Counted from the stretch's first letter, positions 1 to 60,474 are shown. The stretch is 64,000 nt of DNA from Caecitellus pseudoparvulus (GCA_965644315.1 CBFFRQ010000068.1:1-64000); one strand, 5' to 3'. Numbers and translations: made by a program. The notes: generated by a model from the sequence alone, not told the origin.

Positions 1-191
1 AAATATTTATAACCTTTGTCATTTGGTAAAAATAATAAATCACCTTGCTGAATACTATCTTTAATTAATGCTTTATGGGTTGGTATCTCTTGTCCTTTGT
101 CTTTCTTTGGAGGATTGGTTAATTTTAATAACTCTGAGTTTTTAGAATTTTTAATAACCTTTAATTCTTCTAAAATCTTATCTGATATCAT
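1..191 (-). CDS. Viral-type hypothetical protein, 5' part only (runs off the window)
   Basis: ATG at 191 opens MISDKILEELKVIKNSKNSELLKLTNPPKKDKGQEIPTHKALIKDSIFSKVIYYFYQMTKVINI with no stop to position 1; TCTA 10 nt upstream. Confidence 0.7.
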   Translation of the reverse strand, partial: MISDKILEELKVIKNSKNSELLKLTNPPKKDKGQEIPTHKALIKDSIQQGDLLFLPNDKGYKY

Positions 192-219
192 TAATAATAT
201 ATAGATTAATATATTATTA
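192..219 (-). terminator. AT palindrome (11-bp stem, 6-nt loop) just downstream of the ORF 225-782 stop; putative hairpin-rule polyadenylation signal overlapping the next promoter
   Basis: taataatatat (192-202) / atatattatta (209-219) is a perfect inverted repeat 5 nt after the TAA at 225-227. Confidence 0.55.
202..205 (-). promoter_or_regulatory. TCTA late-promoter-like motif for ORF starting at 191
   Basis: TCTA (taga on +) in an AT-only context, ending 10 nt upstream of the ATG; matches the CroV/mavirus late promoter in position. Confidence 0.55.
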
Positions 220-224
220 GTAAT

Positions 225-782
225 TTAAAATTTATGGTCTGGGTATTCCTCTTTTAAGTATTTAATTAAATCTTCTTTTGTTTCATATCTGGTATAAAAT
301 CCATTATTTTTAATTCTGGTTATCATTTTAATAAAAAACTCATCTTTTAATAATTCTTTTAATTCATAAGATACCGTTTTTATATTCTTTGGTAGCTTGG
401 GTAATATCTGAGATTTTAAAATATAATGTTGTTGAACGAAAGCCTCCGGACAATTTGTGCCTAAAGTGTCAATGATAAACTGCCGCTTGGGTAAATCATC
501 AATATATAAATTTATAACTTCTAATAAATCTATTAATTGTTCGAAGGTTTTAATTTTATTTTTAATATCTTCTGTTTCTGCTTCAACTTCTAATTTAACT
601 TTTTCTAGGTTTTCGAGCTTTGTATTTTTTCTGATATTAATAGATGGTTCATTAAATATTGAGTAGTAAAAGAAATATGAATAATCCTCAATTTTACAAA
701 ATTTATTTATGAGCGAGTGATAAGAATTTAACTCCCTCTTGTGAATGCTTAATAATGTCTTTAGACTTTTTAAAGTTGTCAT
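225..782 (-). CDS. Viral-type hypothetical protein (185 aa, N-terminal coiled coil)
   Basis: Intact K/I/L/E-rich ORF in ~20% GC DNA, flanked by TCTA and a terminal hairpin. Confidence 0.75.
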   Translation of the reverse strand: MTTLKSLKTLLSIHKRELNSYHSLINKFCKIEDYSYFFYYSIFNEPSINIRKNTKLENLEKVKLEVEAETEDIKNKIKTFEQLIDLLEVINLYIDDLPKRQFIIDTLGTNCPEAFVQQHYILKSQILPKLPKNIKTVSYELKELLKDEFFIKMITRIKNNGFYTRYETKEDLIKYLKEEYPDHKF

Positions 783-792
783 TATATAAATT

Positions 793-796
793 TAGA
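793..796 (-). promoter_or_regulatory. TCTA late-promoter-like motif for ORF 225-782
   Basis: TCTA ends exactly 10 nt upstream of the ATG at 782, the same spacing as for the ORF at 191. Confidence 0.55.
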
Positions 797-933
797 ATAT
801 TTATTTTTTAAATTATTTTTTAGATTTAAATAAATTCGTTTTAAGAAATATTTTTTCTCTAGATTATTATATATATCAAAATGTAATTTATATAATGTAT
901 TAAATCAACGTTGTATCATAAGCCATAATATCC

Positions 934-974
934 ATTTTTTATAAGTATTAAATAATATAATATTTATAAAAAAT
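934..974 (-). terminator. AT palindrome (17-bp stem with one mismatch, 7-nt loop) spanning the stop of ORF 964-1494
   Basis: attttttataagtatta (934-950) / taatatttataaaaaat (958-974); the TAA stop at 964-966 lies in one arm. Confidence 0.6.
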
Positions 975-1494
975 CATCTTTACATATTTCGTTAAAAATT
1001 CCTAATCTATCGGCATTATTTGGATGATAAACAATTGATAAAAATTCATCTAAAACATTTTTATATTTTACTTTGTGTTTTTCTTTATATCTTAGAATTT
1101 TTATATATTCTTTTAATGTATTTGAAGACCATTTAAAATTATCAAATATTTCTATTAAATCAAAAAAAAAGAATTCTTTTTTTTCTATTCCTTCTGCGTC
1201 CCAATCTTTCATAGGATATTTAAAAATCCAATCAATATTAAAATTTTTAGATTTATGTAATACCATAAAAATTAAATTACCATCATCAAATTTTTTTATT
1301 AAATTAAGGGTTAATCCTGATTTTCTAATATTCTTAATATCTTCAATTGTAATGTTTGAATTATCAGCCCCTCTAAATCTTGTAGCTTTAATAAATATAT
1401 TTCTTACACATTCTATATTTTCACAACAAGTTAATAAAATATCATCTTCAATATTATCACAATTCATAATATCATAATATAAATTAACATCCAT
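964..1494 (-). CDS. Giant-virus-like hypothetical protein with degenerate NPNIT/PDKPWDW-type repeats
   Basis: NSNITIEDI, DWIFKYPMKDWD and C-terminal DEFLSIVYHPNN resemble the repeat units and C-terminal EL..V[WF]HP motif common in Mimiviridae-type proteins (from recall). Confidence 0.7.
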   Translation of the reverse strand: MDVNLYYDIMNCDNIEDDILLTCCENIECVRNIFIKATRFRGADNSNITIEDIKNIRKSGLTLNLIKKFDDGNLIFMVLHKSKNFNIDWIFKYPMKDWDAEGIEKKEFFFFDLIEIFDNFKWSSNTLKEYIKILRYKEKHKVKYKNVLDEFLSIVYHPNNADRLGIFNEICKDDFL

Positions 1495-1508
1495 TATATA
1501 TATTATAC

Positions 1509-1512
1509 TAGA
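1509..1512 (-). promoter_or_regulatory. TCTA late-promoter-like motif for ORF 964-1494
   Basis: TCTA ends 14 nt upstream of the ATG at 1494 in an AT-rich context. Confidence 0.5.
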
Positions 1513-1659
1513 TAAAATAAAAATCTTTAAACCCTTTTAAGTCGTTTTTATGTGTTTTTTATTATATATTCGCACACGCCCCACGCTATGTCTGATTCTT
1601 TTGATATTATTATATATGGTCTCGTCTCGCTCGTTTGGTCCTTCTCTCTTTCTTTTTAT

Positions 1660-2005
1660 CGTAATGTAATGCTTACACAACAACACAAATTACATCTCAA
1701 AATATCATATTGATTAAAGGTTGTTTAAATTCTCAAAATATAGCCGTTTTTCCTGTTGTTCTGTATTTTCGTTAGCTTGTTTAATTTGTTTGTAATGTAT
1801 CTGTATTTTACAACAGAGAATCTGTATCATATAGTTTGTAATGAATCTTACACAAAAACATAAAAAACATCTGAAAATATCATATTGATAAAAGGTTATA
1901 TGAAATCTTGAAAAATAGCTGTTTTTCCTGTTGTTCTGTATCTTTGGTGTCTCTTAGAGTTTTTTTATATAGTATCTGTATTATATAACAGATATTGTGT
2001 ATTTA
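1660..2005. repeat. Imperfect tandem duplication, two copies of ~175 bp
   Basis: cttacacaa..acatct.aaaatatcatattgat.aaaggtt..tagc.gtttttcctgttgttctgtat..gtatctgtatt..aacaga starts at 1672 and again at 1847 (offset 175). Confidence 0.85.
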
Positions 2006-2880
2006 TAATATTTATAGTAATTAGAAGGGATTATTTATAACTTTATCATATGGATTTAATAATATTACGCTATCGCATAATATCATTAACTGTTTTGATT
2101 ATTGGCACAGATCAATTTTTATCAATAAAATTGATCGAGCATGACGATAGTATTGTAGAGTATGAGACCCTGGAGCCAAAAAATATAATTTTACAACGCC
2201 CTTTTCGACGCGAAGGAATCGTTGTCCAATCACTAAATTTTGCACGTATTCCTTTTTGCATAGTCTCTACACCATGACAATATGTATTGTTCCGTGTTCG
2301 TGGTACAACATGCCAAAACGCCGTTTTCAGCCATTTTTCAAAACCAGTTTCTATCAAGTATCCGACATAATATCAATCGTAATACAAATTTGAACCCATT
2401 AGTGTTTAGAGTATATCAATGTCCACCTTTCATGAAAAGGCAGTGCTCATCGTCATTCTTTGAGAACGTTCAAAGGCGTGTCAACAATTCGACTCCAGTT
2501 TGATGAACCCCAAAATCTGCCATTTTCTTGAGAGGTAAAGATGAATCACAAACTGAAACAAATTAAAACTATGTCTGGGGACTGCGTACAATGGATAAAT
2601 ACTTCAATGGTTTGGTTCAATATGTCCAGGTGTGTGATACAGCGCTATCAATGCTTTCCACCTGAAGGAGCATTGGGCTGTTTGGAGCCTGAAGAAGCCA
2701 CGAAAGTGCATTAAGTACCTACTCATGCATGTAACGTGTTAGTGATGATACGGCAAATGCTCCTCGTATTCACGTGTATCAGAATATGTACGATAATCAC
2801 GTTTCACGGTGTCAAACCTACTACTGAGGAACTGCATGGAGCCTGTTTCAGATTTTGCATTGTTCCAGAATTCCCACGCG

Positions 2881-3597
2881 CTAGTCGGGACGACCTTCAG
2901 GTGCCCTAAAACCTTTCTGCGTGTTTTCAATCTGCAAAATGCTGCTATCAGTGTCTGAACTGCTTGAGGAATCCAGCGTGTAAGTCCTGCCTGACGCTAC
3001 AAGGGTGTGCCGATGTCGCAATTTTGCCGTCGTAAACAGCATATCTAACGCCTGCACAGAAGCTGGAGAATGCCAGTAGGCCAGGCAGGGTTCTTCCCAT
3101 TGACCTAGCGCCCAGATGACCGCGAGTATCATCAATCGCTTGGGAAGCCACGCATTGGCAGCAGGGCTTCCCACACCTGCTGCAGTTCCAAGCAGCTCCC
3201 ATGGCCTGTGGATCTGATGCTCCAGTTTCTTAGCCTGTCTCAATGTTGGAATTTCAGGTACATGGAGGATGAGCATCCACGTTTGACCCGCAGTCTGCCT
3301 TGCGCCAGTCCCATTGTTGTGCTTGGCCAGCCGGTCCAGAACGCCAGCTGTCGCACTTAGTCGAACCAGACGCTTGAAAGCAATGCTCATTGCTCCTCAT
3401 CCAACAACCATTCACGATCGTTCAAGTACAGGGCAGTCAAGGCAACTACTGAGACTGAACACTTTCCTTGCCGATCTTGCAGATCGATCGCAGCAATTCT
3501 TGCAAGCAAATTCATAGGCGTATTTCACACCGAATTGATCTGTGCCGGATACGCCTTGTGTCAAGTCAAAACAAAGCACAAGTCGTGTCGCTGACAT
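2881..3597 (-). CDS. Degenerate SLX1-like GIY-YIG nuclease-domain gene (probable intron 3373-3462) or pseudogene
   Basis: LDRLAKHNNGTGARQT..W.LIL.V....TLRQAKKLEHQIH matches the R-L-x-x-H-N-x-G-x-G-A-x-x-T ... A-x-x-E pattern. The in-frame upstream ORF 3412-3597 carries KYAYEFAC (first motif). A phase-0 GT..AG intron would remove both intervening TGAs. Confidence 0.55.
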
Positions 3598-3605
3598 CAG
3601 CGACG

Positions 3606-3722
3606 TATCCTCTAGTATATCTAAAAATATAGATTCTGATATAAATAAATATATATTAATATATTGTATGCGGGGTATGTATTCATAGAGTCTATAGCTG
3701 ATTAGTAGATATATATATATTT
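3606..3722. promoter_or_regulatory. AT-rich island between divergent ORFs; putative bidirectional promoter or element junction
   Basis: ~115 nt, mostly A/T, with an (AT)n tract, several TCTA/TAGA and short palindromes, set in 50-60% GC DNA between ATGs at 3597(-) and 3723/3797(+). Confidence 0.4.
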
Positions 3723-3796
3723 ATGTCCGCTTCTGAGTCCGTGTTAGCCGCAGGTTGCGTTAGCAATCCGAGGCACGGCAGCTCATACATTTATGT

Positions 3797-4621
3797 ATGC
3801 TGTCCCCCGTACACTTGTGGCAGACCTTACAAGTGCTGCACGGCGAAGATCTCCCTACTCTCTTTCGGGAATGCCCGCTGTGCCACAGCCGCATGTGGTC
3901 CAGCCTCCATGAGCATATCCTGCTTGCTTGCCCCCACCCCCCTCTGGCAGAGTCCAGAGCAGCAACCCTGACAAGCGTCCTCCAGCTGACACTTCGTTCT
4001 GCAGAGGAAGGGTCGAGCAACCCACAACCCCACCGCGTTGGGGTCCCTTCACTCTTGGTAGCATCCCTGCGCCGCTGGGAGGCTGGTCTGTACCTTCGCA
4101 CACCAGAGCGCAAGACCATGCTTCGCTTTCTCCTCCTTGGTCAGTGGCCATTCCGATGGGGCACTGCTGCAGAGCTCCAACATGTGTCCAGGGAGCAGGC
4201 ATCTGTGCTGTCGAATCCCCACCTGACTCTTCGAAACTCCGAGGGTCCTCTCCTTCCTCCACTCTATTGGAAGACGATGCTTGTGAAGGCGGCTGAGTAT
4301 TCCTCATCTGCATGGGACGAGTGTGTGAAGCGCATGCTGAAACTTACCTCTGAGGACTTCCTACCTGTGCAGAAGCATGCGCGATATCTGTGGTGGGCGG
4401 CGCATGGTCGCGGAAGTGCGCTACCAGGATCCTCCACACCCTTGCCGAGTGCAGTGAGAAAGCACACGGCGAGGGTGCGGGCGAGGCGCTTCGAGCGCAC
4501 TTACTACCCAGTGCGCTCTGAACGGCGTGCACCACGCTCCTTCAGCACCCAGTCCACTCTGTTCGATGTAGGTGTCTCCAGGCCTGATAGTCCTTCCAGT
4601 TCGGGATCCGACTCGGAGTAG
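3797..4621 (+). pseudogene. Non-LTR retrotransposon ORF2-like C-terminal fragment (CCHC zinc knuckle); no RT domain present
   Basis: ECPLCHSRMWSSLHEHILLACP = C-x2-C-x10-H-x4-C, typical of LINE ORF2 C-termini, followed by LRFLLLG and a helical W-rich tail; no RT or endonuclease motifs upstream. Confidence 0.45.
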
Positions 4622-4972
4622 TCCTTGCACTCTCCGAAGAACGTCCGTGGATCTGTGAAAGAAATTCTGCAAGGCGTGGTGAGAACCACGATGGAACCAG
4701 AAGGCTTGGCAACGTGGGCCCAAGCGGCCCCCTTCATGTTGACCTCTCTCTGCGAAGCGGAGAGGAATAGGTCAAGAAATGCTGTCACAGTGCTTACCTG
4801 GAGGTTCTTGATCCCATACAAGTCCTAGCTGTCTCCCTGCAGCGGCGCGTGCGGAACTTGGCGTGCTTGACGCACGGGCGTCAGGCGCGCCGCCAGAGAG
4901 GACTCACCAGGATCCAAGCCGTCCACAAGCACTCCAAGGGTTTACCTGCGCAGAAAGGATCGGAAAGGGCGC

Positions 4973-5315
4973 GGAACGTACCAAGAACAAGGCGTTCCTC
5001 AGGTGTTCGGCGGGGCAGGCAGTGCGTGATGCTGCCAGGTGCACTGCCCCACTGCGAAACGCCCCCACTTGTCCCGGGCACTGAGGCCCATGTAGGGCCC
5101 ACAGTGGGACGAAGTCCCGGGCCCGAGTCGGAAACCGGCCCGGGATAATGGGGGAAGTTGAATTGTAAGCTGATGGAATGTCTGAGTGGGTGGCGCTGAC
5201 TGCGCACCCCCCCAAGAGACCGAGCTCTGGCCCCCTCGCGGGCATGTGGACCTTCTTTCGAAGGGGCGGGCGTTGAAACGCCCTAGCGAAGCGGCGGCTT
5301 ATACAACGGACTCAC
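4973..5315. other. Non-coding highly structured region (chain of hairpins and two multibranch domains)
   Basis: Stems 4973-4978/4993-4998, 5012-5018/5044-5050, 5062-5078/5139-5154 (enclosing 5079-5106 and 5107-5117) and 5163-5170/5297-5306 (enclosing 5230-5243, 5251-5264, 5268-5283 and GCGAAGC at 5286-5292). Confidence 0.6.
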
Positions 5316-6117
5316 GTCTGTGCTGGCTGCAGATCCATTAACATGGTAGCCGCTGTGGTGTACACCGGAGCGCACTCGTGTGCGACGGTGAGCAGGACAC
5401 CACGTGTGATGCCCCAGCTGCACCGCGCCTGTGGCAAGCGTGGAAGCGAATTGCAATGCATTGACTGTCTAAACCGGCAAAATTGGTGCGGTGCCCAATG
5501 ATCATGTGCGCGAATGAGGCACATTGCAGTGGTTCGTGCGAACCTCAGACGCCAGTCCAGGGGCGCGCAGGGGGCCTCACAGAGCCAGTAGCCTCGCTGC
5601 GTTTCAAGTGTGTTGAGTGCTGGTCGCGGCGACCTGCACCATCGCTGTAATCCACCTTGATCAAGTCCGAATCGTAAGACCTCGTTACTTGATTTGGAGG
5701 CGGCGACGAGGTGTTTCTACGGCTCTGCAACGCTCCATGGAGATAATGCCCCAACAGGAGACGAAATTTCCAAAAATTTGTGCTACATACAATCCTAATA
5801 GATTTATGGAAGTGTTCCTGTCCAAAGCGTGCCCGTGGGTTGTCTCTCTCCTGCCAGAGAGCGCTGCACAGTGCGGGTGTGGCGTTTCGGTTTGCCTCAC
5901 CACGCCAATCCACGAGGCCTGCGATATCTCTGCATTGGGCTGCACTCCACCGGCTCTGAACAGTTGAGAGGTCCGTTACATGAAGGTAGTCTTATGAAAC
6001 GTTGAATTATTCTGCAAGTCTCTCATACCACGCGTCTAGCCTCGGGGTCCTGGCTGGCCTGTGTGTGGATGAAACTCCCTTCACCCAGCCGGAGCGCCGG
6101 TGGCCCTGCTCCAGCCC

Positions 6118-9100
6118 TCAGCATCGCGCACGCTTGGCACTCGGCGAACTGAGACCATGGTGCCTTGCTCGCTTCTCCCGCTGGACAAACTGCTCTTCTT
6201 CCCCCTGCATCAAGCTGGCCACTCGCTCGACCTGGCCGACAGTGGCGTGAGCAGCGGAAGCGATGCGGGACGCCGCTGTGTTGGGGCTGTACTTGACAGT
6301 CTTGGCCTCTTGCGTCTCCCTCTCCTCCCTGAGCAGTCGGCGAATATCTTCCTCAACCTCTGGCGTGACGGACGAGCTGGCCTTGTGGTACAGGGGCAGG
6401 CCACGGGCCTTGGCTTCCTCGAACGTGGTAGGTGCAGGCGCATCCGGGCAGCTCTGCAAGGCTGCTGTCAAGGTACCTCGAGCAAAGCCACCTACATCAC
6501 CTGTCAGCACAGAGCAAAGCTCCAGAGTAGCCGCAACGTCTTGAGACTTGCTGTGTGTCTCTTCCTGGCGGCATTCATCGCTCGCATACGTGGACAGCAG
6601 CTTGGCAGCAGTGGCCTGGTTCTTCTCCAGCCAGTACAACGTGAGGTTCATCTCGGCAACATCCAGGCGAGTGGATGTGCCTGCTGACACCATGTGCCGC
6701 ATGCCTGAGTGCAGGCTCTCATTGCCCCCGGTGGTGGTGGCGCCGTGCACCGCGTCACGCCCATCCAACAAGCCTTGAAGCCCCACATCATACTGCAATG
6801 ACGCCTTGACCCGAGCACGAACGGCGGGAAAGGAGGACTTGAGATCCAGGATGCCGCGTGTGATGCGGCCTTGCACGGCGGTGCCTGCGCCACCCCGCGA
6901 TGAAGGCGCCCACACCTGGCGAAACAGGCTTGCAGTGCGCTCCAGTGCCGCTGAGGCCTGTTTGTGAGTGCAGGGCCCAATGTGAAGGGGAAGAATGGGC
7001 ACCCCGCTCGGGTGCACCCCAGCCTGAGTTGGCGTGAAGTGCTCTCCTTGGCACCGACGGAGCAGCATGCCTGCTGAAGTGGCACAGGCAGCAGCCAGAG
7101 CGAGCGGGACGTGCTTGCGAAGCCTCGCGGCAGCCCCAACTGCACGCCCTGGCCCATACAGGGCCCACCCATAGGCTGCGAGGAATTCTTGGACTTGTGT
7201 CTTTTGGGAGTCTGAAAGGGACTTGCGTTGCAAGATGCGGCAGGCGCAGTCGATGAAGGCCTGGATGTCGGCAGGCTCAGCAGAGACCAAGGCGGCTCGT
7301 TGGCGAGCAGCGGCATCCTCTGGAAGGAGCAGTTTGGGAGACACCACGCCCAGTGCAGGTGTTCGGATCCACTCCACTGTGTCGAACCACAGCCTGATCA
7401 TAAGTGGGCCATCCTGGTGCATGCCTTTCTTGGGAATGGCCTTGGCCACGCGTCTGGCGAAGTGCCACGGGTCCACGGCGAACCGCACCACGCCTTTCCG
7501 CAGCAGTGGGAAGTGCACGTCGATGATTGCCTGCAGGGCGTGCTGGTGGATCTTGAGGTTGTCCACTGTGATGACGCTGGGGTGGGACGCCGCCGGGCCG
7601 CGCTCCGGCAGGTGTCCCTTCAGCCTGCACAGCACTAAGTCCAGGACCCAGGCCAAGTTTGCCGCGCTTTCGTATCCCGTGAACATGGGAGGCTGCAGGA
7701 TGAAGCCGTACCGGCCCACAACCGTGGCTATGCAGGGAGCTACTCGCCACCGAGTCCTGCGTGTGGCCCGCGTGGCCCGGCCTCCGCTGCCCGCACAGGC
7801 TTCCTCCTCTGCACCCTCGTCGCTGTCGCTGTCGCTGGCGCTGTCGCTGTCGCTGGCGCAGTCACTGCCTTCTTCCCCATCCAGCTCATCTTCAGGCTCT
7901 TCCTCGCCCAGCTCGTGCTGTGGACTGGCTCGCGCAGCTCTGGCTCTGCGCAGTGGCTGCGGGCCCGCGACGTGCACCCGGGCCGAAGATGCAAACGTCC
8001 AGTCTACGCCGATGGTGTCAGCGAAGCGTGCGAGGGCCTGCAGGTACCCCTCCACATGCGGCTTGACAGCGGCATGGTAGATGTGCAGGGTGGCATCACG
8101 CAGAGCCTTGCCACTTGTGCTGGATCGCACGTTGCCCACAACATGCTTTCTGGCTCGGTGCACGGCTTGGGCCAGCGCATATTGCACCTCAGGGCATTCA
8201 TCGAGAGAGGAGTGCTTCTTGAACAGCTTCTCTTTCCAGGAGTCTACCTTGTCCTCGAAGGGCCGCATGAGGTCTCGCCAGAAGGCTTTCTGCACCTTGA
8301 CCATGCCTTCCCGACGATGCGCAACGTAGTTCTCCCACAGACTCGTAGCAGCAGCCTCGTCCATGAGAATGGTGCCAGCGATCGCGCATGGTATGGAAAG
8401 GACCAGCCTGCGGCCCTCCATGCCAGGTGGGGACGATCCATCTGGGAGTACGTCCGGGTACAGCTGGTGCTTGACCCTCCAAAAGGATCGCGACCCCACT
8501 GTGACAGCAAATCGATGGCTTCTGCAGAGCAGAGTCGCCTTTGTTACAGGCTGCACTCCCTTGAATCCGGTGAATAGACACTGCTTCGCGCTGTGGGAGC
8601 CATTGGTCGTCCACTTGCACGTGCCGTGGCAGCTGCCTGCCTTGGGACAGGTGCCCCATGGCAGCTGCTGCCGCACATCAGTCCAGCCCTTGCTACTCAC
8701 GGATAGAACTGTGAGTTCGGTGCGCATGGAGGGGTGCGCCATGCTTCCCTTCAGGTCCGCTTCCATCTGGACCAGGTCCGCTTGGACCTCTGCGGGGATG
8801 GGTCGGTCACCCACCTGGGCCGGCCTGCCAGCTTGTGCGGCCACTGCGACTTCGAAGCGCAACCGTGCTGCGGCTGCAGCTGCTTGGTATGCTTCACTGG
8901 CTGGCAGGCTGTGGCCGTCTGGGCTCCACGGCACAGTCTTGCTGCGGCATGGGCCAGGAGGGCGAGGGAGGAAGGGTAACTGCTCGCCACAGGCTGCGTG
9001 GGTGGCAGCGAGGCCCACTGGCTGGACGTCCAGGGTGACGGGCTGCTTGCGGGTGGGGATGTAGTGCTCGTACAGGGAGCCTGCCAGGGCAGCGTTCGCA

Positions 9101-10328
9101 GCAGGCTGCACAGCCCAGGAGTCCCTTGTGACGGCGTGTGTTGTTCCTGCCAGGGTGCCTGCCTTGCTCTCCATATCCTCACACGGCTCAATGTACCTGT
9201 ACAGCATGTTGCCTTGCTTCTCAGTGGCATCCTTCCTCAGTGCTGCGTCCACGGAGCCTTGCCCATCTCGCAGCGCTGACGCGACGCCCAGCTCAGCAGG
9301 GTTGTCAGGAAAGGCCATCAGCACCCCTTCTCCATGCTGGGGCGGCAGCCTAGCCCGGCTTATTGCTGCACGGGTGGCCATGACGGTCGCCCCAGGCAGT
9401 CCCAGGGTCACAGGCTGCGCGGGGGATGCCATGAACATGCCCAGCACTGAGCCCACCGAGCCAGCCAGGGCAGCCGCGCTGGGAGGCACGATCATGTCAG
9501 AGGGAGCCTCAGGGAGGCACTCAGGAGCTACGTCGTCCTTGGTGCACTGCTGGACGAACTCGTCGCCGACAGGGGCGGCGTCCAGCAGCAGCCGGCTGGC
9601 TGCAGCTGCACCGGCCCGCACCATGACTCGGGCGCTGTCGATGGCTTGAGAGAACCAAGTGGTGCCCTGGCCGCCTGGAAGGCTTCGGCGGAAGAACTCT
9701 TCAGCCATGTCTGCGATGGCCCGTGGATACAGCATCCACTCGCCGCTGGAGCTGGGGGGGTCCATGGCTGGGCTTGCAGCGCCTCCAGAGCCTGAGCCAG
9801 TGCCTGCGCAGAGGCAGCACCATTGCCGTGACGCTGTGGCGCGGCAAGCAAGGCGCTTTAGCACGCACATGGATCGGCAACCACACCGTTTGGGGAAGGT
9901 TTAGGCATTTCAACCACAACATGGTGCGGGGCGCCCGATTCTGCGCCGCAGGGAGGCTCGGCGTGCTGGCTACGCAGCTGGGCGAAACGCCTGTTTGAGG
10001 CACCACCACGCCACGCACCTGCCGCCAGCTTCATGGCCCGCGCATGCCCACATCGGTGGTTGGAGAAGTTACTGGGATTCTTCCCTCGCCAGCGACACCC
10101 TGTTCGCAAACAGTGGTAGTGTGTCCTGGTCACGAGGTCTTCCCCTGAGGAGCGACCCTGCGAGGCACGTAACCCCTCAGCCTGCTCTTGCCTCCAGCGC
10201 GCACAGTGCACGCAGTGACGGGCGTCAGACGAAGAAACTTTAATCAGGAACGGCCCTTGTTGCAAGTTCAGAGGCGGAGACGGCGCTGGAAGGGCCGTGG
10301 GCGACGCCGCGAAAATGGGCTGGTCCAT
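6118..10328 (-). mobile_element. Mutator(MULE)-superfamily-like DDE transposase gene with N-terminal zinc finger (exons ~10328-10019, 9940-9887, 9803-6118)
   Basis: IGVDWTF (D1), CIATVVGRYGFI, VITVDN (D2), VDPWHFARR (DxxH), TTGGNESLH (E). Upstream Cys/His cluster HCVHC..HYHCLRTGC..H joins through phase-1 GTGCGT..CAG and GTGTGG..CAG introns. No TIRs found. Confidence 0.75.
7818..7862 (-). repeat. (GTCGCT)n hexamer repeat encoding an Asp/Ser acidic insertion in the transposase
   Basis: gtcgctgtcgctgtcgctggcgctgtcgctgtcgctggcgc encodes ASDSDSASDSDSD. Confidence 0.7.
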
Positions 10329-10738
10329 GCCAAAAACAGCGCCTGTGGGGCTGGTGCCAGCCCAAACAATAAATCAAAGCCTGCAAATATTCCCTATGGG
10401 ATGCCAAAATTGCGCCCTGTCAGCGAAAATACTGGAGGTGGTGCGAGAATGTTTTGCCCATTTCCAGTATATTGCCATGCCAGCGAGAGAGAGCGGCCAA
10501 CGCCCAGCTCGTGCACTGGGAACTTTCTCGAAAAACATCAACCCACCACATTATCATGCCCATTCCCTGGCCTGTTCACCCTCCAGCCCCCCCGATCCAT
10601 CCTCCACTTCCTACCGGCTTCAGGGGCCCGCCACCTCAAGAGTCCGTCAGCAGGTGCACAGGTGTTGCCTCTCACCTGCATTGGGGCGTGCTGGGCCAGC
10701 CACACTGCCTGGATCGCTGCAGTAGGGATTGAGGTGGC

Positions 10739-12349
10739 ATGATGGCAGTCAGCGGTGGGATGCCTCAGGTACCTCAAGCTGCAGCCATGGCACACGGCGG
10801 GGCTTGGCACACCTCCTCGCTCCAAGCTGGCCACTCTGCTGGTGCAGCAGCTGCTGGGAGTGACTTCCGGGCTGTTCATGAGGCTTTCGATGTGGCAAGC
10901 CAGCTCGAGTTCAAGGATGGTGTGGCATTCAGTCTGGTTCAGGCAATGTCTCGCGTCCTGGACGCACTGAAGCGCTGTGCAGCTCCACAAGGATCGCAGC
11001 TTTCGGTGGCGTTTCGCGCGTTGGCCGTGGCCCTTCAGGCAGGCGGCTGCCTGAACCCACAGGAATTGCGAGCGCGGCTGAGGAATGTGCTGAGTGCTGG
11101 ATTTTTGCATGTTCATCTGGGCCCTGTGGTTCAGGAGGCCACCAAGGTTCCACGGGTTGCTGTGCAAGTCCGTGGCGTTTCATCTTTGGCGTGGGCATCC
11201 AGCAAGGAAAGCCTTGACTTCGACCAGTTCATCATCCCAGCACTGTACGCATCAACCCAAGAAGTCGTGCAGTACCTTGTGGAGGAAGCTGTTTCACAAG
11301 TGCCCGCCCATGCCAAGTATGCGTTGCCGGTGGGGGCTTTGACACTGGTGCTCTCGTGTACCCTGGACCCAGCTGGCGCTGGTTTCATTGACACACGCAC
11401 GCTGAAGGAGTGGCGGGATGTGTTTGGACCGACGATGGGAGATGCTGCCCGGAACTGCATGGCCTTGTTCTCTGTTCCAGGCTTTCTTGGCCACATGAGC
11501 GTTGACGTGGTGCAGGCTCTGCTGTCCGTCAAGCCTGTTGGCACATTCGCAGTCACTTTCGGCAGCGACGGCTGGCACAGCTTTGTGGTGCACGCTGTCA
11601 CCATGTCACCACAGGGTGTTTCTGCTGTCCAGTTTCGACAAGTCCCAGCTTCGGGGCATGGTACTCCTGCAGAGTCTCTGGCCAGGGCCTGTGCCGACTT
11701 GGGCACCAGTCTCGGACAGCCCATCACGCAGGATCTCTCCCTCAGCCCGTGGTTCCATGGCCGGCTTGCATCAAAGGAGGCGACTCAGCGCCTGACTCAT
11801 GCTCCTGAACGCTCTTTTTTGTTCCGGTTGTCAGAGTCAACGCCAGGCGCCTTGGGTGTGGCCATGGTTGTTCAGGGGTCTGAGGGGCGGCTGTGTGTTG
11901 TGCACGAGCTGGCTCGACCTGGCCAAGGAGGGGGGTATGTGCTGGGCGGGCAGGCGTTTCAGGATGCCTTTGATCTGGTTGCGAGCAATTGCGGCTTATT
12001 GCGCCACCCCATTCTGCAGTGCGGGGGCAGCTACGGGCAGCTGAGCAACATGGAAGCTGTGGTCCAGGCTCGGGACTCGTTTACTGCATGGGCTGCTGCT
12101 CGGTTGGCGCAGCGCCCTGCCTCGGGGCGCATGGGCAGTGCCGCAGCTGCGCAGTCTCCCGCACCTTCAGCTTCAGGTGGCTTCGTGTCGCCAGTGCATG
12201 ACGCACCGCCGCCCACCTTGGAAGTGCAGCAGTCGACCAACCCTCCGCAGCTGCTGTACACCAACCTCCCCGGGACGGCGACCCTGGGGGAACAAGCGAG
12301 TGGTGACCCTGCTGCAGTGCCTAGCGCTGCCCAAGCGCACCCGCCGTAG
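10739..12349 (+). CDS. Tandem SH2-domain protein with a Cbl-like EF-hand/SH2 module
   Basis: GAGFIDTRTLKEWRDVFGP (EF-hand-like), GFLGHMS..VQALLSVKPVGTFAVTF (degenerate SH2), PWFHGRLASKEATQRL..APERSFLFRLSESTPG (canonical SH2 with FLxR); start codon uncertain. Confidence 0.8.
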   Translation: MMAVSGGMPQVPQAAAMAHGGAWHTSSLQAGHSAGAAAAGSDFRAVHEAFDVASQLEFKDGVAFSLVQAMSRVLDALKRCAAPQGSQLSVAFRALAVALQAGGCLNPQELRARLRNVLSAGFLHVHLGPVVQEATKVPRVAVQVRGVSSLAWASSKESLDFDQFIIPALYASTQEVVQYLVEEAVSQVPAHAKYALPVGALTLVLSCTLDPAGAGFIDTRTLKEWRDVFGPTMGDAARNCMALFSVPGFLGHMSVDVVQALLSVKPVGTFAVTFGSDGWHSFVVHAVTMSPQGVSAVQFRQVPASGHGTPAESLARACADLGTSLGQPITQDLSLSPWFHGRLASKEATQRLTHAPERSFLFRLSESTPGALGVAMVVQGSEGRLCVVHELARPGQGGGYVLGGQAFQDAFDLVASNCGLLRHPILQCGGSYGQLSNMEAVVQARDSFTAWAAARLAQRPASGRMGSAAAAQSPAPSASGGFVSPVHDAPPPTLEVQQSTNPPQLLYTNLPGTATLGEQASGDPAAVPSAAQAHPP

Positions 12350-16321: not shown

Positions 16322-19300
16322 CTAAACACGCTTTCCGCGGGAAGCTTGTGCCGGGATGGAGCCAGTGTAGCTGACTGAGCTCATGCCTCCACTTGTTCGC
16401 GTGAGCGGGCGTGTTGGAGACGACCCAACATGCCCTGTCCTTGCTGCGGACACTTGCCCCCCATCCGCAGCTGCCGCTGTGGCCGCTGCTGTCGCTTGTG
16501 CGCCGCGGGTCCGGGCGCGCACGGGCGCTTCATCACCGGGAACAGGCGACAAAAATTGCAAGCGCCGTCGTTGACGCGGTTCGAGAGCCTTGCACAGAGC
16601 TTTTGCTGACATGTCCACAACACTGACGTCGTTGATGGACATGAGGATGGCCCCAGGGCACACAAAGCCACCCAGTAGCGACTTGCTGAGAACACTGGCC
16701 ACAATGATTGAGACGCCTGAAGTTCGCATGTGCGACTGGCCTCGCTTCAGCGTCAGCACGTTGGAGCTCTCAACAGATCCGTAGCCACTGTCGGAGCCCT
16801 CCAGCAGCTTGATGCTGGCGCTGGGGTCCAGCTCCACTGCTACCATGTGAAAGGTGGGTGTGGATGCGTCCTCACCTGCAGCCTGGCTGCCACCTACAGT
16901 TGGGTCTTCGCGCGCCCTGCTGCTCGGACCGTGACTGCGCTGCTTCGGTGCTGTGGCAGCCTGACCTGCAGTATCGGAGGGGGTGGCAACAGAGGCGCCA
17001 GCCTTTGCTGCTGCAGCACCGGCCCCTGCACTCCCAGACCCCAATGCGCCTGCTCCGACGCCACCCGGCCCTATTCCAGCGTGGGTGGCTGCTGCTGCAG
17101 GCGCGGCTGCCTGGCTGTGGGCTTTGGCAGCTTGCCAGCCCCGCGCAAAGCCCCAGGCGGCGCACTCTTCTGGTGTTTGCAGACGCCGAGTGCTGCCTGC
17201 CCTGCGGACGTAGAATAGCTCCTGGGTGCCGTGGACGTGGCAGAAAGGAACGCGCTGGTGCTGGGGGCAGCGCACCCTAAACTCTACGACAAAAAGATCG
17301 GCCACACGTTCGTACAGCACTTCCCCTGCCGCATCAGCGTGCCTCCTAAACACGGGCACAAACGCGGGACTGTCCACCAGCTCTCTTGCACCCGGGGGTT
17401 GGATGTGCCGCATGATCTCGTTGTCCCAGGTGAGGTTCACCTGGTCTCTCACTGCCCGTGGTGCACGGCAGCCAATGACATCTCCATCGTCACCCACGCC
17501 AAAGTACAGCGTGCCGCCTTCAGCGTTCAGGAAGCCGATGATGTACTTGTGCCCAACTTGGAGCAGTAAGCCCCTTGGGCCGGCACCACACTTTTTGAAC
17601 TCGTGGTGGATGTCTTCGTCCACGCCAATCTGCTCACCTTCCACGTAATGCCGCTCAGGGAGAGCAGAAACCGGGACACGATCAGCAACGCCTGGGCCAC
17701 CAGGTTCTGGCAATCCAAGTGCTCTCAATGCGGCGAGGTTCAGGGTTGCCCCTGACACTCGGTCTCGTGCCAGTCCAGGTGCTAGCCGCACCCACAATCC
17801 ACCAGTTCGCTCCATGAGTGTCTCAAGGGGCAGGTCCAGTTGCCGCAGCCACTGCTCACAAGTGAGCCCTTCGCTGGGGGCGAGCCCATGAGCAATGAGC
17901 TGCACGAACAGCGGCGTGACTTGCACGAATCCAGCGATGGGCTCGCCAGTCGCCACGTCACACGGCCCAAGCCACATCCCCGCTCCACTCTTCCGCGAGG
18001 GCACATTGCTGGACGACTGCAACCTTTGCAAGGTGGCCTCGCGCTCACTCCACATCTTTCGAATGAGAGCTTCAACACGGCTAGGCTCAGCCGAAGCTCC
18101 TGCACTGCTCGTCACTCGTTCCAGATCAGGCGCAGCGCCACCCCCCTCCGCGGTGCTGTCCACAGAGACGAGGAAGTCATCACCCACCTCACCTGTCGAG
18201 CGTCGCAGCAGAATGGGGGTGTGCCCTGCCACTGAGGCAGTGCCTTCGGATCTGACGGAGTCCCCCGTAGTCCTTCGGCGCAGTGGATACTCTGGCGCCC
18301 GCACTGTAAGCGCAGGGAAGCGCTGCACAAGGCGGACCCAGACGTCGAGTTTGTTGGCGCCCTTGCCGCGCAACACCTCAACGTAGCCCTGGCAGTGGCT
18401 ATGAATGAAGTCAGCCAACTTGCCAGACACGTGCTTGGAGCCGCCTCGCCGTCGCAAGTCTTGGCCAAGCGATGTCAGGGGCACGTCTCCAGGCTGCAAG
18501 CCACATGCGAGGGCTCGCTTGGCGGCCGACAACGCCGCGAACTTGGGGTGACCACGGGTCACGCGCCGGCTCCGGCCCGCCTGAAGGGCCTCCTCTTGGG
18601 ATTGGGACAATCGCCGCATTGCTGATGTGATCACGGACAACGCCTTGGCATGGGGGGGCAGCGGTGCTTGTGGGGAGGCGGGAACAGCCAGCGGCAGTCG
18701 CGGCGCGGGCTTCGCCTGCTCCGCCTGTCGCCCCAGTCGCTGGGCAATGACACCAAGCCAGACGCTCACACTGTCTTGCACGCCTTGTGACTGCTGCGAG
18801 AGGCAGAGCAGGCTCTCTTGCAGCTGCAAGTGTGGCACTGACGCTTGGCGCCGGGAGCGTGCTGGCACTGCGCTCTCCTCGCTGGCCACGTGCACGAGAA
18901 GTGGCAGCGGTAGCAGGATCGTGAGCACCTTGAACACCGCTGCACCGGCGCTGCCATCTCGCCGCACCTCCAAGCAGGGCATCCATGACATGAAGTTCGT
19001 AAACGTGGCACGGAAAGAGCTTGTCTCGGTGGGCACGGCAGTGGGCGCCTGCTCAGGCACTCGCCACCCGCCGTCATTGACCACCTGCCGCAGGTGCTTG
19101 CACTGCATGCAAGCGCCCATGTCACCTGTACCTCGTTTCACTTGCACCAAGGCCAATGCAAGCACATACACTCGCCATAAGTACTGCTTCCAGGTATCAA
19201 CTACTTCTGGGGGCACGTGTGCCAGCTGCGCCTCGGCAGCGTCAAGGGTCATGGCTGGCTGCGCCTCAGGAACAGGCGGCGCCGGAGCGTCAGCAAACAC

Positions 19301-58695: not shown

Positions 58696-60474
58696 ATGGC
58701 TTGCCTCCTGCGCCGTGCCGTCGGAGTGGCGCGGGGCAACGTCAGTGGCGCAGGGCAACTTCGAAATTCCGCACCCGCCCTCGCCGCCCTGCTGGACTGT
58801 CGACTGAGCACAGAGGCGCCCTGGACGCTGCCACAGCTGCCATCACCACTTCCCATGCGGCCATACCATGTCGTTCCAGGCAAGGACAAGCCCCTGCGCA
58901 AGGACAGCAGGGCGCCGCCCAAGCGCCGTGCCGGCTCCCGATCTGGCGGTGTGAACGCCGCCCTCACCAGCGCCCTGGACATGGTGCTGCGCAAGGGCGT
59001 GCAGCCACACTCGTACCTCATGCCACAGGGCTCCATTTTGGGCGACGTTGTGCACGCCTTTGTCGAGCGGCGCATCGGGCACGTGCTGCTGCAGGACGGC
59101 AGCGGCAAAGTGACGGGCATGGTCACGGCGCGGGACGTGCTGCGCGCCATGGACAAGCACGTGCACGGCATGGGCATGGGGGACGTCTTCAAGCGCCCAG
59201 TGGACGAGTTCGCCACCCCATCTAGCGCCCTGGTGCATGCCGAGTACGACGACCCCCTGCAAACGTGCGCCCTCATCATGTCTGAGGTGAAGGTGCGGGT
59301 GCTGCCAGTGCTGAAGGAGGGCGTGCTGCTGGGCGTCATCACCCTCAAGGACATCGCCGATGGCGTCAACCGCAACTTGACGGGCGGCAAGGACACATAC
59401 GTCCGCCACGTGCTGCCCCGCCGGGGCGGCACCATCACCGCCATGGACGGCCGCCTGGACGCCGCCCACCTGCCCAAGTCCCTCTCCCACGCCGTGGGGC
59501 CAGCGGCCTTCCCTGGTGCCTTCCCTGCGCCGCAGGAGAAGCGCACCCTGCCCCGCCTGACCCTGCACACGGGCGCCATGTGCATTCCCGGGCCGGGCAA
59601 GGCTGTCGCAGAGGACGCTCACTTCGTCAGCCACCAGGCGTGGGAGCACCAGGCAGCAGACTTTGCGACGTTCCTGGGCGTGGCTGACGGCGTGGGGTCC
59701 TGGGCCATGCGGGGGGTGGACCCGGCTGCCTTTGCTGGGCGGCTGATGCAGGCTGTGCAGGAGGCCGTGTCTCGTGCGTCGGGCGTGGGTGTGGACCCGC
59801 CCAGCCCCATCGACCTGCTCATGCAGGCGTGGCAGAGCACTCTGGCTGAGCGGGTAGTGGGCAGCAGCACCGCCCTCGTGGCGTCCCTGGACCACACCTA
59901 CAACCAGTTCGCCACTGCCAACCTCGGCGACAGCGGCGCCCTGGTGCTGCGCCTGGTGGACGACCCCGCCACCCTGGGCTCCATGCAGCTGGGGCGAGAG
60001 GGCGCTGACGAACACGACTGGGAGGTTGTCTTCCGCACTGGCCAGCAGCTGCACGGCTTCAACCAGCCCTTCCAACTGGGCTTCGATGACGAGGCGCCGT
60101 CGGGGGAGATCTGCTTCGACCGCCCTGAGGCTGCCGACGTCGCCCGCACGCCCGTGCAGAGCGGGGACATCATCATCCTCGCCTCAGACGGCCTCTTCGA
60201 CAACATGCACGAGGCAGAGCTGCTGGATGTCGTGCAGGCGTGGCACAACGCACGCGCGGCGCCCGAGGACAGCGTCCCAGCCCAGCCCCGGCCCAGCGAC
60301 TCGGTGCAGGCGCTCGCCTCGCAGCTGGCCAGCAAGGCCCAAGCCCTCAGCATGGACAGCGACCGAGACAGCCCCTTCGCGGTGCTGGCCAAAGACAACG
60401 ACATCCTCTGGTCTCATGGGGGGCGCATGGATGACATCACGGTGCTGTGCGCAGAGGTGCGCACTGTGGAGTGA
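58696..60474 (+). CDS. CBS-pair + PTC7-type PP2C phosphatase fusion, probably mitochondrial
   Basis: Arg-rich presequence; CBS pair (RIGHVLL..GKVTGMVTARDVL; VRVLPVL..GVLLGVITLKDI); PP2C motifs EDAHF, GVADGVGSW, GSSTA, ANLGDSG, FNQPFQLG, ASDGLFDN, GGRMDDITV. Confidence 0.92.
   Translation: MACLLRRAVGVARGNVSGAGQLRNSAPALAALLDCRLSTEAPWTLPQLPSPLPMRPYHVVPGKDKPLRKDSRAPPKRRAGSRSGGVNAALTSALDMVLRKGVQPHSYLMPQGSILGDVVHAFVERRIGHVLLQDGSGKVTGMVTARDVLRAMDKHVHGMGMGDVFKRPVDEFATPSSALVHAEYDDPLQTCALIMSEVKVRVLPVLKEGVLLGVITLKDIADGVNRNLTGGKDTYVRHVLPRRGGTITAMDGRLDAAHLPKSLSHAVGPAAFPGAFPAPQEKRTLPRLTLHTGAMCIPGPGKAVAEDAHFVSHQAWEHQAADFATFLGVADGVGSWAMRGVDPAAFAGRLMQAVQEAVSRASGVGVDPPSPIDLLMQAWQSTLAERVVGSSTALVASLDHTYNQFATANLGDSGALVLRLVDDPATLGSMQLGREGADEHDWEVVFRTGQQLHGFNQPFQLGFDDEAPSGEICFDRPEAADVARTPVQSGDIIILASDGLFDNMHEAELLDVVQAWHNARAAPEDSVPAQPRPSDSVQALASQLASKAQALSMDSDRDSPFAVLAKDNDILWSHGGRMDDITVLCAEVRTVE

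Follow-up and report, generated by a model that had tools for sequence, protein, structure and literature searches.

An AT-rich element end in Caecitellus pseudoparvulus, probably from an integrated virophage or Polinton-like virus with giant-virus-type gene signals

What kind of DNA lies at the start of a 64,000-nucleotide stretch of the Caecitellus pseudoparvulus assembly (GCA_965644315.1 CBFFRQ010000068.1:1-64000; hereafter the window), where does it end, and by what would its genes be read? The GC content is 21.1% over positions 1-1494 versus 65.5% over 10501-64000, and the first 1.5 kb consists of three minus-strand open reading frames (ORFs), all without introns: ORF3 (3-191), ORF1 (225-782) and ORF2 (964-1494). 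A first-pass annotation, made from the sequence by itself, had described an element of ~20% GC beside an intron-rich host of ~65% GC. The contrast in composition holds, but the host part of the window carries many unbroken ORFs of 500-1700 codons and is intron-poor. We consider it probable that positions 1-3808 are the end of an integrated virophage or Polinton-like element, comprising the start of an rve integrase and two orphan genes, with TCTA motifs ahead of them, and that the element is likely silent until the cell is infected by a giant virus with a late promoter of the type found in Cafeteria roenbergensis virus (CroV).

The cut gene at the left edge is the most informative. ORF3 (3-191, minus strand) comprises the first 63 codons of a gene whose remainder lies left of the window, and Pfam, PDB and phage searches did not recognize these 63 amino acids. 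Its last residues resemble what we take to be the start of the rve integrase core motif. A strict integrase pattern gave zero matches; a looser, degenerate pattern then found seven viral contigs, and all seven matches sit in proteins of 297-457 amino acids that Pfam recognizes as rve (five reach or exceed the curated cut-off, and four have a chromodomain), to which ORF3 is 40-46% identical over 35-67 residues. To avoid the circularity of a motif-based search, residues 1-48, outside the motif, were scored separately: they reach 13.1 bits on a profile of the seven integrases built without ORF3, a score attained by none of 2,000 shuffles, and pairwise they are significant against three of the seven integrases but not against the other four. 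Of 108 stretches from an alignment scan, 10 were confirmed as relatives, including three new ones with rve below the cut-off; Pfam rve was matched in all ten. The relatives lie on contigs of 14-30 kb with virophage or Polinton-like virus (PLV) gene content, as judged from 66 scanned ORFs in flanks of up to 10 kb. A virophage-type capsid match is present on three of the ten contigs, and pPolB, A32 ATPase or helicase domains on most of the others. By this comparison, ORF3 is assigned as the N-terminus of an rve integrase of the virophage/PLV type, with only the first Asp of the catalytic triad inside the visible 63 residues; the first-pass annotation had recognized no core gene among the three ORFs, which no longer holds.

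Each of the three genes is preceded by TCTA, which ends 10, 10 and 14 nt before the ATGs of ORF3, ORF1 and ORF2 (202-205, 793-796 and 1509-1512, minus strand), with 0, 0 and 1 G or C among the 21 flanking bases. When 1-2101 was shuffled 20,000 times by dinucleotides, all three ORFs had TCTA 5-20 nt upstream in 3 cases; shuffling the spacers alone gave 22 of 20,000. Widening the distance to 0-30 nt raised these figures to 11 and 179 of 20,000, respectively, both windows having been picked post hoc, after the data had been viewed. The minus strand of 1-2101 holds 12 TCTA in total, nine beyond the three promoter sites, and the motif is not confined to promoters. The two complete genes end at AT-rich hairpins, one directly after the ORF1 stop (192-219, minus strand), whose loop contains the TCTA of ORF3, and one across the ORF2 stop codon (934-974, minus strand). 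Their stems are 12 bp at the ORF1 end and, with one mismatch allowed, 16 bp at the ORF2 end, and were reached by 8 and 1 of 2,000 shuffles, respectively. Stems of at least 12 bp occur in 9 of 292 sliding windows of 1-2101, and all nine overlap these two hairpins; the folding z-scores are -2.8 at the ORF1 end and -1.9 at the ORF2 end, where a wider window gives only -1.3. The promoter spacing and the gene-end hairpins had both been reported in the first-pass annotation and both stand, the former as enriched over shuffles and the latter as the only strong stems in 1-2101. The early motif AAAATTGA is not upstream of any of the three ORFs, being present only inside ORF1 and inside the insertion described below, as expected for an all-late virophage. 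In the long spacer between ORF1 and ORF2 (858-886, plus strand), a further TCTA is followed 19 nt on by an ATG with a stop directly after it, perhaps the relic of a gene start.

As a control, the same rules were applied to the ten related integrase contigs (five duplicate loci dropped). TCTA stands 5-20 nt upstream of 16 of their 125 ORFs (13%) versus 3/3 in the element, and a 12-bp hairpin lies at the stop of 9 of 120 ORFs versus 2/2. Four giant-virus-like loci (one near-duplicate dropped) have TCTA before 9 of 60 ORFs and a 12-bp stem at 2 of 60 stops. The element's signals are above these control levels, with small n. The counts also bear on a different reading, namely a Polinton-like virus or transposon read by the host polymerase, in which TCTA and the TATA-rich run ahead of the ATG would be its own promoter and no giant virus would be needed. 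In its favor are the 16 TCTA-bearing ORFs of the relatives, an integrase equally close to PLV-like contigs and to virophages, and the replication of some PLVs without a helper (PMC10945749). We nevertheless hold this reading to be unlikely: all three genes have TCTA at the same spacing, well over the relatives' 13%, hairpins stand at both complete gene ends, and host genes are GC-rich upstream and lack TCTA (five starts viewed).

The two orphan genes have few relatives of any kind. For ORF1 (225-782, minus strand; 185 amino acids, no known family), the sole relative is a 99% identical protein, and pattern matching returned 0 of 92 in viral contigs and 0 of 469 in prokaryote genomes. A weak Pfam hint of copia gag (E 0.005) was rejected as below the cut-off. 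Bacterial or plasmid origin found no support, given the prokaryote result for ORF1 and a terminal region that matched no plasmid. ORF2 (964-1494, minus strand; 176 amino acids) has relatives at 74% and 67% identity, together with 13 distant matches among 1.84 billion proteins, most of which carry a 22-residue W-rich repeat and none of which is informatively named. A profile of 33 W-rich units matches ORF2 once, at residues 79-99, a circular match in that the source proteins had been found with ORF2. Viral contigs gave 0 of 33 by pattern and metagenome contigs 0 of 592 by alignment, while one protein of the W-rich repeat family gave 0 of 2 in viral contigs. A pattern for the C-terminal tail of ORF2 occurs in five viral contigs, three of them labelled GVMAG; both tail-motif loci scanned for a family-B polymerase contain one, and four of these contigs align at E<0.01 to the 74% relative, none to ORF2 itself. 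In the ESM Atlas, ORF2 found only unnamed viral clusters (0.89-0.90, low recognition) and ORF1 nothing, and AlphaFold mean pLDDT is 38 for ORF2 and 37 for ORF1. The Mimiviridae-type repeats earlier claimed for ORF2 come down to one clear 21-residue unit and the tail motif, with a weak giant-virus link; descent of ORF2 from a giant virus, as an acquired accessory gene, is plausible but weakly supported.

Could the window hold the end of an integrated CroV-like giant virus, with an integrase near its terminus? The 21% GC, the ORF2 tail motif in giant-virus contigs and TCTA, a giant-virus promoter, would all agree with this, but we regard it as improbable. The contigs with the ten integrase relatives measure 14-30 kb and are of virophage/PLV content, and no early promoter precedes the three genes. 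CroV has several hundred genes. The late motif is described on 124 of them (PMC5294985), whereas all three genes here are 'late'. The 2.3 kb of element seen contain no hallmark gene (PolB, major capsid protein or RNA polymerase).

The extent of the element was examined in public sequencing runs, 20 of the 22 listed containing part of 1-4200; contigs of four runs were aligned to the window, the RNA run X20 (share 0.09) not being one of them, and summed contig depth was not taken as copy number. Upstream of ORF2 lies a non-coding terminal region, a putative terminal inverted repeat (TIR), with an inner part at 1495-2101 and an outer part at 3616-3808 whose last bases are five C. Between these parts sits an insertion (2102-3615). 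The joint 2101>3616, in which the insertion is missing, occurs in three of the four runs, in one of them with at least 145 letters on either side, and the inserted form is spanned by single contigs of runs X1 and X3. Without the insertion the terminal region measures 800 nt at ~28% GC (27.9%) and includes two tandem 175-nt units (1661-1992) that are 79% alike. No second copy of it lies within the window, and its exact patterns gave zero matches in viral or metagenome contigs. Searches of viral, metagenome and genome contigs turned up no copy of the element that reaches further than the window does. In variant copies of the element the middle of ORF1 is replaced (272-551; runs X3 and X5), or the sequence runs on after 1597 into a different terminal region (X5); the copies are recombining members of one family.

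The element ends at 3808. This position is followed by another flank in X1 and X3 and by three unlike contigs in X5, and 3809, the first base of the host flank or repeat joined to the element (3809-5472), is preceded by other DNA, an empty form of the flank, in all four runs. The first-pass annotation had placed the boundary at ~2050 and must be corrected, as the element continues beyond an insertion that other copies lack; its proposal of an integrated virophage or PLV terminus is supported by both the integrase start and this end with several flanks. Since public runs show this end next to other flanks as well, we are dealing with an integrating multi-site element and probably not with an assembly chimera. 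A chimera of free virus and host DNA would gain from the fact that the contigs of X1 and X3 crossing 3808/3809 have 38-39 letters on the left and only 30 on the right, one under the 31-letter threshold, and that these runs are possibly the window's source. It is nonetheless very improbable, in that the junction recurs in contigs assembled independently from two samples, the 3808 end has other flanks in X1, X3 and X5, and a host-type mobile element lies inside the terminal region. A 2-bp target-site duplication (TSD) deduced from two flanks in X1/X3 was dropped as chance-level. Within the flank, the right end of a repeat at 5070-5472 joins different DNA in other copies: CCCTAA telomere-like repeats in X3, X5 and X8, and in X5 also position 1873 of the viral terminal region; it may be the end of a retroelement targeting both.

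In a further reading, the locus is a capsid-less or truncated derivative, EMALE08-like (EMALE, endogenous mavirus-like element) or transpoviron-like, that has kept the integrase and the giant-virus signals, rides on other virophages or the giant virus and would give no host defense by itself. Truncated EMALEs with TIRs exist (PMC8547959), no capsid gene is seen here, and X3 shows two flanks for the 3808 end where two full TIR copies would give four, a weak argument as contigs drop variants. The window stops inside the integrase, however, and the visible ORFs are intact; we think this derivative status rather unlikely, and return to the reading of an integrated virophage or PLV.

The insertion (2102-3615, plus strand; 1514 nt, 46% GC) fits a non-autonomous Helitron-like copy. 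Helitrons have a 3' CTRR, a hairpin ~11 nt upstream of it and an insertion site between A and T (PMC4778049). Here the insertion sits between A and T without TSD, its 3' end is CTAG, and an 8-bp hairpin (3587-3604) ends 11 nt before that end; it starts with TT, not the Helitron-type TC, and the joint is possibly one base further. The longest open frame is 171 codons, RepHel was not matched in the three frames scanned, and a weak GIY-YIG match lies at 2884-3396 on the minus strand. The insertion arrived later than the terminal region in which it sits.

The closest known systems are mavirus and EMALE04 of Cafeteria burkhardae and the virophages of Halocafeteria. Like the former, the element is intronless and low in GC within a GC-rich protist genome (PMC8547959, PMC10945749, 10.1101/068312). 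It has its rve integrase close to one end, its genes are preceded by TCTA in AT-rich surroundings, and its terminal region houses another mobile element and is of similar size (800 nt versus 615/616 bp for the mavirus TIR and an EMALE median of 0.9 kb, range 0.2-2.3 kb). EMALE04 is the sole EMALE type of C. burkhardae with TCTA, and the sole one to respond to CroV (PMC8547959, PMC10945749). The differences are a GC content of 21-28% over the 2.3 kb seen, outside the 29.7-38.5% of low-GC EMALEs; a nested element that is Helitron-like rather than Ngaro; two orphan genes between end and integrase, with no primase/helicase, which in EMALE04 and mavirus, elements that also have pPolB, marks the integrase-bearing end; and gene-end hairpins, which the available portions of the mavirus and EMALE papers do not mention (PMC8547959, PMC10945749, 10.1101/068312). 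On its visible signals the element would work like EMALE04, while its GC content and terminal gene order differ, and it is at most a candidate member of that type. Virophages and PLVs of Halocafeteria seosinensis sit amid MULE, LINE and Helitron elements and frequently in the vicinity of telomeric repeats; their mean virophage TIR of 808 bp is near the 800 nt here, and one subclade has CroV-late-like promoters and no known helper virus. Their host is of 47% GC and the elements of 34-35%, unlike here, and the likeness is by description only (10.64898/2026.07.28.741278). AT-rich hairpins at gene 3' ends recall Sputnik and mimiviruses, for which such ends are described (PMC6723459, PMC4402537, PMC6163669, PMC11814242); those of the element are predictions from its bases, and Sputnik relies on the late promoter of mimivirus rather than on TCTA (PMC6723459, PMC4402537). 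The IMG/VR virophage/PLV loci with rve-chromodomain integrases (L001-L015) are 40-51% identical to the ORF3 N-terminus over 35-67 residues, and share no ORF1 or ORF2 homolog; terminal similarity amounts to AT-rich chance matches, and TCTA and hairpins are sparse.

Several observations weigh against an integrated virophage or PLV awaiting a CroV-type giant virus. The 63 integrase residues are equally close to locus L005, whose capsid matches Sputnik V20, and to L003, whose capsid is not recognized; because these are the two best relatives, the fragment cannot separate virophage from PLV. ORF1 and ORF2 have no match in the ten related integrase contigs, and the window lacks genes for a capsid protein, penton, ATPase, protease or polymerase, although these missing genes are not evidence for a capsid-less element because the window stops inside the integrase. 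No left junction pairing with the empty form, and no TSD, was seen in the four runs. A GC content of 21% is under that of every complete EMALE (29.7-52.7%). TCTA is four letters in very AT-rich DNA, with n=3 genes, and it also stands 13 nt before the integrase ATG in two of the ten relatives (L010:1217-2257 and L013:9980-10537), so that it does not single out CroV. Hairpin 3' ends are not stated for CroV or mavirus in the literature searched, a search outside of which the original CroV and mavirus papers fell. The integrase gene of L010 is seemingly split into two frames.

Five of ten host translations are present in the protein collection, in four clusters; two of these clusters include NCBI entries named Symbiodinium sp. 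KB8, and none has a member named Cafeteria (90% clustering). The window genes concerned (28797-29474 and 58696-60471) are near-identical to KB8 entries, at 220/220 residues and at 521/552 with 30 gaps, and the entries lie on contigs of 5.8 and 8.7 kb. The KB8 assembly has 51.9% GC overall, and a GC filter was used only on scaffolds >100 kb (PMC8045281); four mavirus-like capsid genes have been reported in it (PMC10120064), which would agree with an element of this type in the host. CCCTAA-type repeats adjoin the local repeat in host contigs. From its 65.5% GC, long ORFs and CCCTAA-type repeats, the KB8-matching host is probably a co-cultured non-dinoflagellate protist, a flagellate, and it resembles Cafeteria-like flagellates. 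This suggests that the KB8 assembly holds DNA of another protist, to which its mavirus-like capsid genes may belong.

Other features of the host part stand apart from the element. A minus-strand ORF of 1260 codons (6118-9900) is matched by neither Pfam nor NCBIfam and lies in a stretch with many variants where summed contig depth is very high; its motifs resemble those of a MULE/ISL3-like transposase, and no TIR was found around it. At 16322-21307 (minus strand), a 1661-codon ORF has a Schlafen AlbA_2 domain (E 9e-9), a domain linked to antiviral RNases, and at 10733-12349 (plus strand) a host protein has an SH2 domain (E 8e-7). There are no Rfam matches in the window, and none of six ORFs searched against NCBIfam matched.

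What would the element do in its host? Once integrated, mavirus stays silent until CroV infects the cell, and the protection benefits later infection rounds rather than the carrier; entry of a late factor into the nucleus as the activator is its authors' hypothesis (10.1101/068312). By analogy with mavirus, the integrase would join the ends of a linear genome into host DNA, and the element would stay silent until a giant virus with a CroV-type late promoter enters the cell, whose late transcription factor would read TCTA and switch the genes on. Its mRNAs would end at the hairpins, as those of mimiviruses do, and the element would exploit the giant virus for its own replication and packaging, with protection going to neighboring cells, not to the carrier. 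The first-pass annotation's 'possibly new defense system' was an overstatement, as TCTA-bearing endogenous virophages reactivated by CroV are known in C. burkhardae (PMC8547959, PMC10945749), and CroV-late-like promoters in Halocafeteria virophages (10.64898/2026.07.28.741278). The surprise is modest because the element class is common and well described.

A more far-reaching version is conceivable, though we doubt it: a virophage lineage distinct from EMALE04, inserted at numerous sites in the genome of a widespread marine flagellate, itself a contaminant of algal cultures, combining a CroV-type late promoter with mimivirus-type hairpin ends, dependent on an undescribed Aliimimivirinae helper, forming a second cultivable defense trio and ferrying a host Helitron in its terminal repeat. 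ChlorV, too, has TCTA as its late motif (PMC13196603). Inducible virophage defense has so far been shown in few protist hosts. From an element that codes for an integrase and bears TCTA, in a further GC-rich marine protist, one would predict a helper giant virus whose promoter is of the CroV/ChlorV type. The combination of hairpins with TCTA, if true, would mean that the same virus group also uses hairpin 3' ends.

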